Shown: positions 1,449 to 10,976 of the stretch, one piece after another | How positions within the stretch are numbered: the stretch's first letter is position 1 | Layout: each line of letters opens with the position of its first letter | IMG/VR virus record: IMGVR_UViG_2554235190_000005 | Coordinates: 1-23,915 of that record | Source: a virus | Taxonomy: Duplodnaviria > Heunggongvirae > Uroviricota > Caudoviricetes | DNA length: 23,915 bases | Reading direction: 5' to 3' (one strand) | Program-made: the position numbers and the translations under genes | The notes under the pieces: generated by a model | What the model was told of the DNA's origin: nothing | The model's input: the letters and a program-made list of their open reading frames with translations, nothing else | The model's database searches: none

Positions 1449-2105
1449 CTATTTAACATACTTGACTGTTAAACTTATAATTTTACCAATTATTTCAATG
1501 TCTTCTATCTTGCATTCGAAGGCTCTGTTTCCACCCTCGACGAAGATTCTTCCACCGGGTAAACGAGTAATGTCACGGATCGTTATTTCGCCATCAATAC
1601 TTATTACCCATTTACCATCACGTATATCATCAAATTCTTTATCACAAATAAATTCAGAATTGTTATCTGTGATGACAAAAGGTTTTTTAAACGTAGAGGG
1701 TAGAAATCCCTTATCAAAAATATAAAAACCGTCTTTCTGCAATGCTCCATCAGACAATAAATATTTTTCTACTTCTATAGTATTTGTATTTGCTGATGCT
1801 TGCTTTGAACCATGCCCTGTTGTTAGCCAATTAAGCGAGGTGCCCGTTTCAAGGGCGCACTGGATTACCCAATCTGCTGGAAAAATATCACGCATATAGC
1901 GCGTTGCCATGGTGCTCTTAGAAACACCTAAATGATCACATAGAGCCTGACGGGTACCGAACCCATATGCTTCAACTAAACGTTCTATGGCTTTCTTACC
2001 GCCGCTATTGAAATCCACAAGTCCTCCAAAGAAATCCAAAATTCGTTGACAGATTCCAAAAGCGATCTTAAAGTTGAACCAGAAGTGTTCTTTTGGAGCC
2101 TTCAC
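1449..2105 (-). CDS. cI: CI-type immunity repressor (186-like)
   Basis: 218-aa ORF divergent from the apl/cII operon; helix-turn-helix-like segment (..TRQALCDHLGVSKSTMATRYMR..); position and orientation match 186 cI. Start at 2105 is a GTG (no in-frame ATG until after the HTH), so the exact N-terminus is uncertain. Confidence 0.7.
   Translation of the reverse strand: MKAPKEHFWFNFKIAFGICQRILDFFGGLVDFNSGGKKAIERLVEAYGFGTRQALCDHLGVSKSTMATRYMRDIFPADWVIQCALETGTSLNWLTTGHGSKQASANTNTIEVEKYLLSDGALQKDGFYIFDKGFLPSTFKKPFVITDNNSEFICDKEFDDIRDGKWVISIDGEITIRDITRLPGGRIFVEGGNRAFECKIEDIEIIGKIISLTVKYVK
2046..2074 (+). promoter_or_regulatory. Candidate rightward lytic promoter (pR-like): TTGACA-N17-TAAAGT
   Basis: TTGACA at 2046-2051, 17-nt spacer, TAAAGT at 2069-2074, upstream of apl (ATG 2164). 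In 186 pR and pL are face-to-face, so a promoter inside the cI 5' region is expected. Motif match only. Confidence 0.3.
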
Positions 2106-5086: not shown

Positions 5087-7497
5087 GTCATGCCGATATG
5101 AACAACTGCTGCGGCTTTAACGAGGCTGCCGCAGCATTCTCATGGAACAGCCCGAAAAAGGCCATTAACCCTTATCTGGACCCGGCGGAAGTTGCGCCGG
5201 TTTCTACGCTTTCAAACCTGATCACTCTGTACGCTGCCGATAACGAGCAGGAACAGTTGCGCCGCGAGGCACTGAGTGATCAGGTCTGGGAGCGTTATTT
5301 CTTTAATGAATCACGTGATCCTGTCCAGCGCGAAATGGAGCAGGATAAGCTCATTAGCCGGGCAAAGCTGGCGCATGAGCAGCAGCGTTTTAATTCAGAC
5401 ATGGTCATTCTGGCGGACGTCAACGCCCAGCCTTCCCATATCAGCAAGCCGCTGATGCAACGTATTGAATACTTCAGCAGCCTGGGCAGGCCAAAGGCTT
5501 ATTCCCGCTATTTACGTGAGACGATTAAGCCATGTCTGGAACGACTGGAGCATGTACGCGACAGTCAGCTATCTGCATCTTTTCGCTTTATGGCAAGCCA
5601 TGAAGGGCTGGACGGCCTGCTGATCCTGCCTGAAATGAGTCAGGATCAGGTGAAACGCCTGTCCACCCTGGTAGCTGCGCATATGAGTATGTGCCTTGAT
5701 GCAGCTTGTGGTGATTTGTATGCCACCGATGACGTTAAGCCAGAAGAAATCCGCAAGACATGGGAAAAGGTGGCAGCGGAAACCCTGCGTCTGGATGTCA
5801 TCCCACCTGCGTTTGAGCAACTCCGTCGGAAAAGAAACCGCCGTAAACCCGTGCCCTATGAACTCATTCCGGGTTCGCTGGCGCGTATGTTGTGCGCCGA
5901 CTGGTGGTACCGGAAATTATGGAAGATGCGTTGCGAATGGCGGGAAGAGCAGTTGCGCGCTGTTTGCCTGGTCAGCAAAAAAGCATCTCCTTATGTCAGC
6001 TATGAAGCCGTGATGCATAAACGTGAGCAGCGCCGTAAGTCGCTGGAGTTTTTCCGTTCTCATGAACTGGTGAACGAAGACGGCGACACGCTGGACATGG
6101 AGGATGTGGTAAACGCCAGCAGCAGCAACCCTGCGCATCGCCGCAATGAGATGATGGCCTGTGTTAAAGGTCTGGAGCTTATCGCGGAAATGCGCGGTGA
6201 CTGCGCCGTTTTCTACACTATCACCTGTCCGTCGCGTTTCCATTCCACGCTAAATAACGGCAGACCAAACCCGACCTGGACAAACGCGACGGTAAGACAA
6301 AGCAGCGATTATCTGGTCGGCATGTTTGCTGCATTTCGTAAGGCGATGCACAAAGCCGGGTTGCGCTGGTATGGCGTGCGGGTGGCTGAGCCGCATCATG
6401 ATGGCACAGTTCACTGGCACCTGTTGTGTTTCATGCGCAAAAAAGACCGCCGTGCCATCACTGCATTACTGCGTAAGTTTGCCATCCGTGAAGACCGCGA
6501 GGAGCTGGGCAATAACACTGGGCCGCGCTTTAAGTCTGAGTTGATTAACCCGCGCAAAGGAACGCCGACAAGCTACATCGCGAAATATATCAGTAAGAAC
6601 ATTGACGGTCGTGGTCTGGCTGGCGAGATCAGCAAGGAAACGGGTAAATCTCTGCGTGATAACGCTGAATACGTGAATGCCTGGGCGTCTCTGCATCGTG
6701 TTCAGCAATTCCGCTTCTTTGGTATTCCGGGGCGTCAGGCTTACCGTGAACTTCGCTTGCTGGCTGGTCAGGCGGCAAGGCAACAGGGTGACAAAAAAGC
6801 AGGTGCGCCGGTACTGGATAACCCGCGTCTTGATGCCATTCTGGCTGCTGCTGATGCTGGTTGTTTTGCCACCTACATCATGAAGCAGGGCGGCGTACTG
6901 GTTCCCCGTAAATATCACCTCATCAGAACCGCTTATGAAATCAACGAAGAGCCGACCGCCTATGGCGATCACGGCATTCGTATTTATGGCATCTGGTCAC
7001 CCATTGCAGAGGGCAAGATCTGCACTCATGCAGTGAAGTGGAAAATGGTTCGTAAAGCCGTTGACGTTCAGGAGGCGGCAGCCGACCAGGGCGCTTGCGC
7101 CCCTTGGACTCGTGGCAATAACTGTCCCCTTGCTGAAAATTTGTACCAACAAGGGAAAGACAAATCAACTGATGGAGATACCAGAACGGATATCACCCGC
7201 ATGGATGACAAGGAGTTGCACGATTACCTGCACAGTATGAGCAAAAAAGAGCGCCGGGAACTGGCAGCAAGGTTACGCCTGGTGAAACCGAAACGGCGTA
7301 AAGACTACAAACAGCGAATTACAGACCATCAGCGACTGCAGCTCGTGTATGAACTGAAGTCCAGGGGATTTGATGGCAGCGAGAAAGAGGTCGATTTACT
7401 GCTTCGCGGCGGCAGTATTCCGTCAGGAGCAGGGCTACGTATCTTCTATCGGAACCAGCGTTTGCAGGAAGATGATAAGTGGCGGAACCTGTATTAA
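5083..7497 (+). CDS. A: Replication initiation protein (P2 gpA-like rolling-circle endonuclease)
   Basis: 804-aa ORF at the end of the early operon; size and position match P2/186 gene A. Start overlaps the dam stop; the true start could be a downstream Met. Confidence 0.8.
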
Positions 7498-7588
7498 TTA
7501 CGCGGGTTAACAATTCGTGCTCTTAATAATACCAGGCATATCAGGCTGATGAACGTAAAAAAACGTTTTACATCAGTAAGATTATCAT

Positions 7589-7608
7589 ATACTGTAAATA
7601 TAAACAGT
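7589..7608. promoter_or_regulatory. LexA box (SOS operator) TACTGTAAATATAAACAGTG overlapping a candidate promoter (TTTACA at 7566-7571)
   Basis: CTGT-N8-ACAG with an AT-rich spacer, close to the consensus TACTGTATATATATACAGTA; about 45 bp upstream of the ATG at 7651. 186 tum is known to be LexA-controlled. Confidence 0.7.
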
Positions 7609-7650
7609 GGTTATCTATACAGTATTGTTTGCGGTGTCATAGGAGGAAAG

Positions 7651-7839
7651 ATGCAGGACTATTTTTTGGAGTCTTTGAAGCTCCAGCGCATTGATTTTTT
7701 TCTTAAGCTTGTAGCGGCTAGTGAGTGTAGTGATGAAGAGAAGGGGCTGGCCCTGCAGTGGGTTTCTGAATTGACTGATGAACTCATGGCAAAAATCAGA
7801 AGCCACGAATACAACCGCTCAATGGATGTCATCAGCTGA
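7651..7839 (+). CDS. SOS-regulated small protein (62 aa), possible Tum-like antirepressor N-terminal module
   Basis: ATG 7651 with AGGAGGA RBS; first gene downstream of the LexA box; followed 10 nt later by a DinI-like gene. Confidence 0.5.
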   Translation: MQDYFLESLKLQRIDFFLKLVAASECSDEEKGLALQWVSELTDELMAKIRSHEYNRSMDVIS

Positions 7840-7849
7840 GGTGACTTTT

Positions 7850-8083
7850 ATGCGCATTGAAATAATGATCGATAAAGAGCAGAAGATTAGCCAGTCTACC
7901 CTGGACGCTCTGGAGTCCGAGCTTTACCGCAACCTGCAACCCATCTATCCCAAGACCGCTATCCGCATCCGTAAAGGGTCGGCAAACGGCGTTGAGCTGA
8001 GTGGCTTAAAGCTTGATGAAGACAAAAAGCGGGTGATGGAAATTATGCAACAGGTTTGGGAAGACGACAGCTGGCTGCACTAA
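7850..8083 (+). CDS. DinI-family protein (Tum C-terminal-like)
   Basis: MRIEIMIDKEQK...LDALESEL...VWEDDSWL resembles E. coli DinI (MRIEVTIAK...ETWESADDWF) in length and motifs; RBS GAGG upstream of ATG 7850. Confidence 0.7.
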   Translation: MRIEIMIDKEQKISQSTLDALESELYRNLQPIYPKTAIRIRKGSANGVELSGLKLDEDKKRVMEIMQQVWEDDSWLH

Positions 8084-8156
8084 GGAACGTTCCTGATGTA
8101 AGAACTTGAATCTGACGTCAGCAAGGTTGAACAACGAGAGTAGCGAGGCGTTAGCC

Positions 8157-8417
8157 ATGGGTAAAAAAGACAGTAATCACCAGATTATTTATCGGGGCTA
8201 GGTGCTGGAACGTTTAACCCTTGGCGACTGGGTCTTCTTTCAACGCCCAAAGGAGTGTGGCGGAGGTTTTTGGTTGGGCCGCATCTATGAAGACTGCTTC
8301 TGGCTTGAGCTGGAATTCCCCGTTTCGCTATATGACGGCCTGGGGTTTTTGATGGAAGTCACTAGGGTAGAGCAGAGAAGTGATGAGGTTGACGCGAATT
8401 ATCCCCTGTTTGATTAA
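8157..8417 (+). pseudogene. Hypothetical gene interrupted by an in-frame amber codon (TAG at 8199-8201)
   Basis: ATG 8157 with GAGG RBS opens a frame that hits TAG after 14 codons and continues in the same frame as the track ORF 8202..8417 (GTG start, weak RBS). Confidence 0.4.
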
Positions 8418-8465: not shown

Positions 8466-9077
8466 ATGGATTTAGTCTTTAAAGTTCTGGCTTCGTTGGG
8501 TGGGGTGTCTTTTGTTGCATCTGGCATATTTGTTTGGATCGGGAAAGTTTATTTAGAAAGATATAAGTCGCGGCTAAACAAAGATATTGCTGAATTTCAA
8601 TCACAACTGAGTGCAACTAATGAAAGAATAAAGGCTAAGTTAGACAATTCTGTTTATGTAACGAAAGCGTATTTTGATAAGGAGTTATCAGCATATAGTC
8701 TCATTTGGAATTCGATGTTTGAAACCAGAGAAAGCGTGCTTAAGCTGAGGCCTGCGCTGGATCATGTTGACCCCAACGAACCATTTGAAGAGAGAAAATT
8801 TAGAAGGTTGAAAGTTTTTTCTGATGCATTTAACACTTTTGTTACAAGTGTTGAATCTAACAAACCGTTCATCTCACCAGAGGTTTATATAATCTTGGAC
8901 CGTTTCCGGAAGGAATGCCTTTCAGAGTCAATATCGTTTAAGCATAGCGATCCAGAATTTGACGGGCAAAATTATTGGAAAGAGGCGGAGTTGAACCATA
9001 CAACCATCATCAAGCTTTTTGATGAGACGTGTGATGCAATTCGAGACAGGATGCACACATTAACTGTGGTTACGTAG
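8466..9077 (+). CDS. Membrane-anchored hypothetical protein (203 aa), AT-rich cargo
   Basis: N-terminal transmembrane-like helix (LASLGGVSFVASGIFVWIG) then a charged soluble domain; strongly AT-rich versus the phage backbone; TTATAAT-like -10 element upstream. Confidence 0.6.
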   Translation: MDLVFKVLASLGGVSFVASGIFVWIGKVYLERYKSRLNKDIAEFQSQLSATNERIKAKLDNSVYVTKAYFDKELSAYSLIWNSMFETRESVLKLRPALDHVDPNEPFEERKFRRLKVFSDAFNTFVTSVESNKPFISPEVYIILDRFRKECLSESISFKHSDPEFDGQNYWKEAELNHTTIIKLFDETCDAIRDRMHTLTVVT

Positions 9078-9237
9078 GTTTCCAAAAAGTCTCGATGCCC
9101 GCTTTGGAGATTGTGCATGTCTATGCCGCATGAATCCGCATGATCGTTTGAGGATCGTTTTAGCTGAGGCCCGCCAGGAGTGGCGGGATTTTGCTTATGT
9201 CATGCAGGCGCATGAAAACCGCTACATAAAGCGGGCA

Positions 9238-9293: not shown

Positions 9294-10976
9294 ATGGATG
9301 ACTATCTATCTCGGAGAATGTGCATGTCATTGGACTATATCAAAGAACAGTTGTCAGACTTTATTTCATCTGCAGAACCTGAGGTAATGGCTATTCAGGG
9401 TGAGTGGGGGATTGGGAAAACCTATACTTGGAATACTTTCTTAAAGGAAAATAAAAATAAGATTGCATTTAATAGATATAGTTACGTCTCTCTTTTTGGT
9501 GTTAATTCATTGGACGCATTAAAATACTCCATCTTTGAAAATACAATTACAAAAGATTTTATTGGAAATAAACCTAATTTAAAAACAGCAACACAAAATG
9601 CAAAGGGGCTTCTTGAATCCTGCACTAGAAAGACCGCTCGTGTGTTAAAAGAAACACCTGTTGTGAAAAATTTTACTACGACACTTGAGTCAATGTCATT
9701 TATGTCAATTACTAATGTTATTGTAGTCATAGATGACTTAGAAAGACGTGGTAAAAATTTAGAAGTGAAAGATGTCTTAGGGTTGGTTTCTTTATTGAAA
9801 GAACAAAAAAATTGTAAGGTGGTTCTTTTACTTAATAATGGGACAAGTGGTATGGATGACTACTCCACTTATAAAGAAAAGGTTATTGATAGAGAGATTA
9901 CCTATAACCCTACGCCAGAAGAATGTGCAGCTATAGCATATAAAAATGATTCTGATGTTCATAAATTATTAAGCAAATACTCCATTTCTCTAGGTATTAA
10001 AAATATTCGTATACTGAAAAAAATAGAGCGGTTTTTGCTAGCCTTGTTACCTGGTATTAACGTTAATTTTGATAAAATTGCAAATGAAGTCGCACGCTCC
10101 TTAACTTTGTATTGTTGGAGTCATTACGCATTTACTCCAGATGGAGATGTACCATCATTGGAGTATATTAGAAATATGAGAAATATCTATATGCGTGATG
10201 AAAAAGAGGATGGAAAAGAAAAAAAATGGCATAATACTTTGCTTATATATGGTTATAAAAAAACAAACGAACTTGATGAAGTCCTTATAGACATGGTTAA
10301 GCATGGATATATTGATATGAATAATTTTCAAAGGCAAGTAAGTCTAAGGAATGATGAACTTATCCGTGATAGTAAGCGAGGTTCACTGTTTGAAGCATGG
10401 AAGCTTTTCTATAATTCATTTGAAGATAACCGAAATCAGGTTGTTGATAATCTATATCAAGCGGTGGTTGGTGGGATAGAGTATGTAACTCCAAGTGACT
10501 TGGATAGTGTTGTCGGACTGTATAGAGATTTAGATGAAAATATTAAAGCAAGTGAATTAATAAGTAAATTTATTAATTACGGCAATGATGCTCTTAAGGA
10601 ATATGTCCAATCTATTTACATGAATGTTCATCCTATAAAAGATGCTGAGTTAAAGTCAAAAATCCAAGATTATTCTACTAATTTAAATCTGGATGGTTCT
10701 ATAAAGGATGTTCTAATAAAATTATCAAGTCAGAATGGTTGGTCTGATAGGCACGAGGAAATATTGGATGCTGCCTCAGAGGGTGACTACTATGATTTAT
10801 TTAAAAAAGTCATTCTTGAAGGTGGTGATTCAATAATAGCCACTGCTCTTAAGTTTGGTGGGTATAGCAATGGTTCAGATAGAATGAAACGCATCGGAGA
10901 AAAAGCGAGAAATGCTTTGATAAGAATTGGAAATGAGTCGAAGATTAATAAAATACGTGTTAGACGGTATTTGTAA
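9294..10976 (+). CDS. KAP-family P-loop NTPase (560 aa), AT-rich cargo; candidate defence / abortive-infection protein
   Basis: Walker A GEWGIGKTYTWN and Walker B-like VIVVIDDLER in the KAP arrangement; very AT-rich; the true start may be the ATG at 9324 (GGAG about 9 nt upstream). Confidence 0.8.
   Translation: MDDYLSRRMCMSLDYIKEQLSDFISSAEPEVMAIQGEWGIGKTYTWNTFLKENKNKIAFNRYSYVSLFGVNSLDALKYSIFENTITKDFIGNKPNLKTATQNAKGLLESCTRKTARVLKETPVVKNFTTTLESMSFMSITNVIVVIDDLERRGKNLEVKDVLGLVSLLKEQKNCKVVLLLNNGTSGMDDYSTYKEKVIDREITYNPTPEECAAIAYKNDSDVHKLLSKYSISLGIKNIRILKKIERFLLALLPGINVNFDKIANEVARSLTLYCWSHYAFTPDGDVPSLEYIRNMRNIYMRDEKEDGKEKKWHNTLLIYGYKKTNELDEVLIDMVKHGYIDMNNFQRQVSLRNDELIRDSKRGSLFEAWKLFYNSFEDNRNQVVDNLYQAVVGGIEYVTPSDLDSVVGLYRDLDENIKASELISKFINYGNDALKEYVQSIYMNVHPIKDAELKSKIQDYSTNLNLDGSIKDVLIKLSSQNGWSDRHEEILDAASEGDYYDLFKKVILEGGDSIIATALKFGGYSNGSDRMKRIGEKARNALIRIGNESKINKIRVRRYL

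Follow-up and report, generated by a model that had tools for sequence, protein, structure and literature searches.

A predicted LexA-controlled tumA-tumB operon in a Fels-2-like P2-family prophage with 186-type immunity genes

Genomic Context and Gene Content of the Module

The analyzed window, a 23.9-kb stretch of DNA, represents a P2-family prophage with 186-type immunity genes. Its early region encodes an integrase, the repressor CI, an Apl/Cox-like protein, CII, a Fil-like protein, a Dam methylase, and the replication protein A. The two-gene module described in this work is located directly after gene A, at the place where 186 has p95-tum, and before the cos/portal end. The module and the features that are relevant to its function are the following:

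1449..2105, minus strand: gene for the 186-type CI repressor, on which ORF1 presumably acts; uncertain start codon
5083..7497: gene A-like ORF (replication protein A)
7567..7572, plus strand: -35-like hexamer TTTACA (5/6 matches to TTGACA), counterpart of the one in 186 p95
7590..7609, plus strand: LexA box 1, TACTGTAAATATAAACAGTG, with the CTGT-N8-ACAG core at 7592..7607; arms conserved, interior variable
7590..7595, plus strand: -10-like hexamer TACTGT inside LexA box 1, 17 nt from TTTACA
7605..7624, plus strand: putative LexA box 2, CAGTGGTTATCTATACAGTA, with the core GTG-N10-CAG at 7607..7622
7651..7839, plus strand: ORF1, tumA-like, 62 aa, ATG start with AGGAGG 4 nt upstream; presumed CI antirepressor
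7850..8083, plus strand: ORF2, tumB-like DinI-family protein, 77 aa; the ORF1 stop codon and the ORF2 ribosome-binding site (GAGG) overlap
from ~11015: portal-side genes

The module is thus placed between replication gene A and the cargo/portal region, and the gene order around it agrees with that in 186, PSP3, Fels-2, and Cartapus. Among phage records, that of Escherichia phage Cartapus is the closest, with 98% identity across the region. Among complete E. coli genomes, the module is found in 1126 out of 5426, where the two genes are annotated as "hypothetical protein" and "DinI family protein," respectively. The comparison set comprises 84 sequences, namely the window, Fels-2, PSP3, 186, and 80 IMG/VR loci; the latter were chosen by the presence of a DinI gene that is at least 94% identical to ORF2.

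The initial annotation had described a 62-aa ORF and a 77-aa DinI-family ORF after a LexA box, and both genes are confirmed. ORF2 matches the Pfam DinI family PF06183 over the entire profile (positions 1-63 of 63; E 2e-24, 86.1 bits vs. the gathering cut-off of 24.2), as well as the E. coli DinI structure 1GHH (E 2e-9). Its score against the chromosomal DinI equivalog NF007893 from NCBIfam is below the cut-off (53.7 vs. 111 bits), and ORF2 is classified by these scores as a phage DinI-like protein, not as an ortholog of the host DinI. The two genes are tightly linked in all 80 IMG/VR loci. Both are under strong purifying selection, as indicated by the median dN/dS of 0.046 for ORF1 and 0.024 for ORF2 at dS of ~1.3, which is near saturation.

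ORF1 is 96.8% identical to STM2728 from Fels-2 and matches phrog_698 (E 6e-38), a PHROG family whose function is not known, while no match was found in Pfam, NCBIfam, PADLOC, or PDB sequence searches. The AlphaFold2 model of ORF1 (pLDDT 89) is a two-helix hairpin formed by helices 2-23 and 28-61, with a conserved cysteine in the turn. A Foldseek search with this model against PDB returned generic helical hairpins only, all of them with E > 2. Two longer ORFs of 96 and 101 aa were rejected as real genes, since their starts are located upstream of the promoter or inside ORF1. A hairpin at 7828..7845, covering the ORF1 stop codon together with the ribosome-binding site of ORF2, was a candidate terminator or translational-coupling element; it was rejected as a conserved feature, since it cannot form in the most common variant of the junction.

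LexA Box 1 and the Predicted SOS Promoter

The 20-mer TACTGTAAATATAAACAGTG is the sole site in the window with at most three mismatches from the palindromic LexA consensus TACTGTATATATATACAGTA; a match of this quality is absent from all 100 shuffles that preserve dinucleotide frequencies. The bare CTGT-N8-ACAG pattern alone is weaker evidence, as it occurs at least once in 25 out of 100 window shuffles. Across the compared sequences, CTGT-N8-ACAG is intact in 77 out of 84, at a fixed distance to the DinI gene and with the inner eight bases varying; five of the remaining seven sequences still keep CTG-N10-CAG, and the other two are rearranged or truncated upstream. In Fels-2, the 20-mer is identical to that in the window. 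We regard LexA box 1 as real because its arms are conserved across the relatives despite near-saturated synonymous divergence. The near-consensus LexA box that the initial annotation had placed upstream of both ORFs is therefore retained, with its coordinates corrected by one base from 7589..7608 to 7590..7609.

The predicted promoter overlaps this box. In an anchored alignment of 49 unique upstream regions, TTTAC of the -35-like hexamer is invariant and its final A is nearly so, while the 17-nt spacer is variable. The -10 hexamer of 186 p95 is annotated in GenBank (NC_001317) as TACTGT, which corresponds to the first six bases of the 186 LexA site; the TTTACA-17 nt-TACTGT layout predicted here is the one annotated for 186 p95. 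An alternative -10 candidate is TATACT at 7588..7593, with a 15-nt spacer. A generic sigma-70 promoter scan reported no promoter at the module, which it missed because TACTGT has only 3/6 matches to TATAAT. Given that 186 p95 has the identical -10 hexamer, we rejected the negative scan as proof of promoter absence.

A Putative Second LexA Box Overlapping the First

Fifteen nucleotides downstream of LexA box 1 there is a second LexA-like sequence, putative box 2, and the 16-mer cores of the two boxes share one base. Putative box 2, which was absent from the initial annotation, agrees with the consensus at 15 out of 20 positions, its right half being near-perfect. In all 49 unique upstream regions of the ORF1 type, the CAG of box 2 is invariant and the preceding "ata" is near-invariant.

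A sequence search with the combined operator identified matches in small colicin plasmids. The 36-nt operator of the window, ACTGTAAATATAAACAGTGGTTATCTATACAGTATT, aligns without gaps with ACTGTACATAAAACCAGTGGTTATGTATACAGTATT, a sequence located 9 nt ahead of cya, the gene for colicin Y, and this gapless alignment includes the GTG left arm of putative box 2. Colicin operators, for example that upstream of cya, have two overlapping SOS boxes (PMC2994835). They serve bacteriocin control, whereas the operator in the window is assigned to the control of a prophage antirepressor and its second box is putative only. The 186, PSP3, ENT90, and YenM phages have one LexA box only.

Relationship of ORF1 and ORF2 to 186 Tum

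The initial annotation regarded the module as a possible split form of Tum, the antirepressor of 186 with a DinI-like C-terminal part, and suggested aligning both ORFs to it. For ORF2 and the DinI-like nature of the Tum C-terminal part this reading holds directly, as ORF2 aligns by BLASTP to Tum residues 71-145 with 43% identity (E 2e-25). For ORF1, BLASTP produced no alignment to either 186 Tum or PSP3 TumA, and the comparison of PSP3 TumA with 186 Tum was also negative. Since all three proteins fail to align with each other by BLASTP, pairwise similarity is unusable as a test for membership in the TumA family.

Profile searches point in another direction. The N-terminal 70 aa of 186 Tum match phrog_698, the family of ORF1, with residues 6-44 aligned in register to positions 6-44 of the profile (E 5.9e-6). 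Two other PHROG families are matched by both proteins, namely phrog_8554 (E 1e-8 for ORF1 and 3e-12 for Tum) and phrog_1993 (0.002 and 1.5e-23, respectively). In addition, the two sequences are bridged by small proteins under LexA control in other P2-family phages: the ESSI-2 protein shares 53% identity with the ORF1 core and 30% with 186, and the YenM_324 protein shares 32 and 50%, respectively. A set of 31 short proteins of the ORF1 type and 35 of the 186 type can be aligned without gaps over residues 1-48, with E7, L20, and A34 invariant and R13, C26, and E40 nearly so. A comparison of the ORF1-type and 186-type profiles by hhalign was in register but weak (E 0.002, probability 13%). Based on the profile matches, the bridging sequences, the gapless alignment, the same genomic position, and the LexA control, we accept ORF1 as a homolog of the N-terminal (TumA) region of Tum, by profile and transitive rather than pairwise evidence. 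The support for the ORF1 part of the initial proposal is less direct than that for the ORF2 part. The split-Tum reading as a whole is supported, and the same arrangement had already been described for Fels-2 and PSP3.

Comparison with Known Phage Systems

The tum genes of Fels-2 and PSP3 are split by a stop codon, and the Tum protein of 186 has the appearance of a fusion between an antirepressor and DinI (Lemire et al., 2011; PMC3121763). The Fels-2 prophage of Salmonella LT2 shares with the window the order of STM2728 and, after a 10-nt gap, the DinI gene STM2726.1 (STM2727), the position of this pair after gene A, and the 186-type CI. The two prophages differ in several respects. The DinI gene of Fels-2 is only 86% identical to ORF2, whereas PSP3 TumB is closer (92%). 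Between the CI proteins of Fels-2 and the window, the N-terminal domains are 70% identical and the C-terminal ones 28%. Downstream of the module, Fels-2 carries a 243-aa ORF of the size of 186 orf97, whereas the window contains small ORFs and a KAP NTPase. In a study in Salmonella (PMC2225428), Fels-2 STM2727 is reported as 5.5-14.8-fold up with the mutagen MX, its p-value is the lowest of the LexA-regulon table rows that are shown, and STM2726-STM2727-STM2728 are scored as a co-regulated operon.

PSP3 likewise has two cistrons under a LexA box after gene A. GenBank record NC_005340 describes tumA as "similar to 5' end 186 tum; UV induction of prophage" and tumB as "similar to dinI and 3' end of 186 tum." The PSP3 TumA protein (60 aa) shares with ORF1 only the core C-x4-5-(L/I)AL-x-(L/W)(I/V)x(E/D)(L/I). 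In contrast to the window, PSP3 has a single LexA box, a short leader, and a CI with a duplicated N-terminal domain.

The 186 locus resembles the window by its LexA box over the p95 -10 hexamer, by the matching genome position, and by the N- and C-terminal parts of Tum that correspond to ORF1 and ORF2, but the 146-aa Tum is encoded in one fused frame under a single LexA box. Tum acts on the non-cleavable 186-type CI (PMC7708051); its binding to CI, its interference with operator binding, and its induction of the prophage are known (Shearwin et al., 1998, as cited in PMC7708051). The DinI part of Tum is also translated separately from an internal GTG, giving a truncated Tum that according to GenBank "modulates SOS induction," and the alignment of ORF2 with Tum begins exactly at this internal start. 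The linker residues A-K-E-G-K of 186 Tum are encoded by the internal Shine-Dalgarno sequence of the DinI part, AAGGAGG, and the stand-alone protein of ENT90 ends within the region that matches the 186 linker, before the DinI part. These two observations suggest that the fused Tum of 186 may represent the derived state.

A more distant parallel is provided by the Gifsy prophages, in which dinI-gfoA/gftA form a LexA-controlled operon for a DinI homolog and a small antirepressor whose target repressor is not cleaved (PMC3121763). In Gifsy, however, dinI comes first, the antirepressor and repressor belong to unrelated families, and the phages are lambdoid and not P2-like.

CI Repressor and TumA Type

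The CI protein of the window is 33% identical to 186 CI and contains the Pfam domains Phage_CI_repr (PF07022) and Phage_CI_C (PF16452); its score for Peptidase_S24, 16.8 bits, is under the cut-off of 23.3. TumA proteins of the ORF1 type (84-100% identical) are paired with CI proteins whose N-terminal domains are 62-100% identical to that of the window, while the C-terminal domains of these CI proteins share 26-59% identity with it, mostly 26-40%. All 80 IMG/VR loci represent one TumA type, and the divergent phages for the covariation analysis were picked by hand. Among 12 such hand-picked representatives, the similarity of the TumA core is correlated with that of the CI N-terminal domain (Mantel r 0.48, p 0.002) and uncorrelated with that of the C-terminal domain (r -0.02), a test that is weakened by the non-random choice of the representatives. 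One locus, L040, combines a TumA of the ORF1 type with a 186-like CI, against the covariation. That the TumA type tracks the N-terminal and not the C-terminal domain of CI is an observation beyond the initial annotation, and a link between the TumA type and the CI N-terminal domain is suggested by these comparisons.

Which Cistron Antagonizes CI

The initial annotation left open which of the two cistrons antagonizes CI. [quoted passage not shown]

Other phages of the family point to the same cistron. In Cronobacter phage ESSI-2, Erwinia phage ENT90, and Yersinia phages YenM_324 and YenM_201.16, a near-perfect LexA box and a TumA-like gene follow gene A, and no DinI-like ORF was found within ~9 kb on either side. 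As these four phages retain both elements in the absence of a DinI gene, the LexA box and the TumA domain form the constant unit, and the DinI part appears to be variable, being absent, encoded by a separate cistron, or fused. Many stand-alone proteins of the 186 type, 63-78 aa in length, are named "Tum protein" by NCBI. Thus, the phages with TumA alone point to ORF1 as the likely CI antirepressor. ORF2 is 92% identical to PSP3 TumB even though the upstream cistrons cannot be aligned and the CI proteins differ, a pattern consistent with ORF2 having a generic role and ORF1 one that is matched to the repressor.

Proposed Mechanism and Alternative Explanations

We propose that the module is an operon for SOS induction in a P2-family prophage that resembles Fels-2 and has immunity of the 186 type, with ORF1 as the antagonist of CI, and we assign to this interpretation a probability of about 85%. 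In the lysogen, LexA would occupy the operator, which covers the -10 region of a weak sigma-70 promoter as well as its start, and keep the operon off; this operator would consist of box 1 and probably of a second, overlapping box in a colicin-like arrangement, where the binding of LexA to box 2 is a prediction. Upon DNA damage, RecA-stimulated self-cleavage of LexA would free the promoter, and both cistrons would be made. ORF1, a helical hairpin of ~60 aa, would then bind CI and release it uncleaved from its operators, which would derepress the lytic promoter. ORF2 would have an accessory function, probably on RecA filaments, where it may tune the SOS signal, and would not act as a CI antagonist. 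The LexA control and antirepression in 186, the activity of tumA in PSP3, and the induction of the Fels-2 orthologs by DNA damage are taken from the literature (PMC7708051, PMC3121763, and PMC2225428).

The regulatory part of this model would fail if the LexA-like sequence were a chance AT-rich palindrome and the genes were transcribed by read-through from gene A. The frequency of the bare CTGT-N8-ACAG pattern in shuffled sequences and the generic scan without a promoter are compatible with such a coincidence, but a 20-mer within three mismatches of the consensus appeared in none of the 100 shuffles, the -35 hexamer is conserved, the arms of the box are kept in 82 out of 84 compared sequences despite saturated synonymous divergence, and the Fels-2 ortholog is reported as damage-induced (PMC2225428); we therefore consider this explanation extremely improbable. 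It is also unlikely, to a lesser degree, that ORF1 is unrelated to Tum and that the module is an SOS-induced DinI-type accessory pair that tunes the host SOS response, the prophage being induced in another way or never. This possibility draws on the lack of BLASTP alignments of ORF1 to Tum and TumA and of matches in Pfam, NCBIfam, and PDB, and on the hhalign probability of 13%. Against it stand the PHROG matches in register, the bridging sequences, and the 48 gapless residues with conserved E7, R13, L20, C26, A34, and E40, together with a genomic position and LexA control that are identical across all types and the dN/dS of 0.046 for ORF1.

The remaining alternative concerns the division of labor between the two proteins: ORF2 might antagonize CI, or both might jointly act as a two-chain equivalent of full-length Tum, with ORF1 as an adaptor or in another role. 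The annotation of 186 ascribes CI inhibition only to the full-length fused Tum, which allows for a contribution of the DinI part, and the linkage of ORF2 to ORF1 is tight throughout the 80 IMG/VR loci. However, the LexA box is kept in phages that have a TumA-like gene and lack a DinI gene, ORF2 retains 92% identity in PSP3 despite the different CI and TumA, the antirepressor activity of PSP3 is assigned to the upstream gene, and induction of the Gifsy prophages was not significantly altered when dinI was removed by non-polar deletion (PMC3121763). We thus regard such a role of ORF2 as quite unlikely. Several points count against the preferred interpretation, namely the lack of BLASTP similarity of ORF1 to 186 Tum and PSP3 TumA, the weak hhalign comparison, the second-hand nature of the evidence for the PSP3 antirepressor, the fact that PSP3 TumA belongs to another sequence type than ORF1, and the pairing of an ORF1-type TumA with a 186-like CI in L040.

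Beyond this core model, it is possible, although we hold it only tentatively and would not call it probable, that the tum promoters of the Fels-2 type carry a colicin-like double LexA operator and that the TumA hairpins recognize the N-terminal DNA-binding domain of CI.

Implications for P2-Like Prophages

The split tumA/tumB arrangement is real but already known and is ordinary for phages of the P2/186 family; the module as such adds no new biology because it is textbook-level for this family. The readings of a double operator and of a connection between TumA and the CI N-terminal domain go beyond the descriptions that we found in the literature. If the double operator is true, prophage induction would be a late, high-threshold SOS function in the phages that carry it, as compared with the single-box 186 and PSP3. 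If TumA reads the N-terminal domain of CI, one TumA type could serve many heteroimmune CI proteins, whose C-terminal domains are 26-40% identical. This would allow cross-induction of co-resident P2-like prophages, as has been shown for the Gifsy antirepressors. The DinI module would be an optional add-on that can be absent, encoded as a separate cistron, or fused.

There is also a gap in annotation. In about one fifth of the complete E. coli genomes, and likewise in most phage records, the TumA cistron is labeled "hypothetical protein" or even "levan regulatory protein." Since TumA is mislabeled and lacks a Pfam or NCBIfam model, the SOS inducibility of these prophages is unreadable from current annotation. 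The double operator, the phages with TumA alone, and the tracking of CI by TumA would bear on the induction thresholds of P2-like prophages and on the cross-talk between them.

Organization of the SOS-controlled cistrons

TumA-like genes occur in the absence of a DinI-like partner in four phages, Cronobacter phage ESSI-2, Erwinia phage ENT90, and Yersinia phages YenM_324 and YenM_201.16, where the replication gene A is followed by a near-perfect LexA box and then by a TumA-like gene, and where no DinI-like ORF was found in the approximately 9 kb searched to each side of this gene. The TumA-like gene is wholly unannotated in the ESSI-2 and YenM_324 records.

TumA-like regions in the comparison loci
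ESSI-2 (L089), about 7929..8195
ENT90 (L090), 8959..9198
YenM_324 (L091), about 6860..7105
YenM_201.16 (L092), 7503..7685

In the fused Tum of phage 186, the linker residues A-K-E-G-K are encoded by AAGGAGG, which is the Shine-Dalgarno sequence for the DinI part's internal GTG start (L001 4775..4795, record 29274..29294). This linker looks like a trace of a stop-codon loss that joined two cistrons.

In the window, the tumA-like ORF1 (7651..7839, plus strand, 62 aa) is called by many gene callers as a 96-aa protein starting from an ATG at 7549 (7549..7839; database entries P0001, P0004, and others); this ATG is located upstream of the LexA box and the promoter. In UniRef, one of the names given to the ORF1 family is 'Levan regulatory protein', which looks like a misannotation. 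A hairpin at 7828..7845 (GTCATC-AGCTGA-GGTGAC, followed by TTTTAT) covers the ORF1 stop codon and the ribosome-binding site of the tumB-like, DinI-family ORF2; it was rejected as a conserved element, since the majority variant of the junction does not conserve it, and thus the hairpin is probably incidental.

The SOS promoter contains a putative second LexA box, GTG-N10-CAG, at 7605..7624, which overlaps box 1 (7590..7609) and is kept in all 49 unique upstream regions of the Fels-2 type. The entire 36-nt operator of the window aligns without gaps with the double SOS operator that precedes the colicin Y gene. The promoters of 186, PSP3, ENT90, and the YenM phages have a single box each.

Genes downstream of the SOS operon

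Genes noted downstream of ORF2 in the window:
8157..8417, next gene after ORF2, phrog_2100; counterpart of gp46 (86 aa) of Escherichia phage Cartapus
8466..9077, 203-aa ORF before the KAP NTPase gene, phrog_26391
9294..10976, KAP-family P-loop NTPase, 560 aa (PF07693, E 5e-9)

The phrog_2100 gene is interrupted by an in-frame amber codon at 8199..8201 (TAG in the window versus CAG in Cartapus), past which a 71-aa ORF with a GTG start remains (8202..8417); this arrangement could reflect either a pseudogene or a restart. The KAP NTPase, which also matches PDC-S49 (E 1.5e-25), a candidate defence family in PADLOC, lies in a variable cargo region flanked by the SOS operon on one side and the portal gene on the other.

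Possible correspondence between TumA types and CI domains

The CI gene of the window (1449..2105, minus strand) was compared with the CI genes of comparison loci L006-L092. In PSP3 CI (286 aa; L007 23218..24078) and in the CI of comparison locus L080, the N-terminal helix-turn-helix domain is present twice in tandem, and the annotated ESSI-2 CI (305 aa; L089 1914..2831) looks over-extended at its N terminus. Partner CIs of ORF1-type TumA proteins are at least 62% identical to the CI of the window in their N-terminal domains and mostly just 26-40% identical to it in their C-terminal domains. Within a hand-picked set, TumA similarity correlates with similarity in the N-terminal domain of CI (Mantel r 0.48, p 0.002); no correlation with the CI C-terminal domain was detected by the Mantel test in the hand-picked set. 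An exception to this pattern is L040 (IMGVR_UViG_2751185914_000007), which combines a 186-like CI (60% identical to 186 CI) with a LexA-controlled cistron encoding a TumA of the ORF1/Fels-2 type (92%), a pairing that may mark L040 as a mismatched recombinant or may point to promiscuity.
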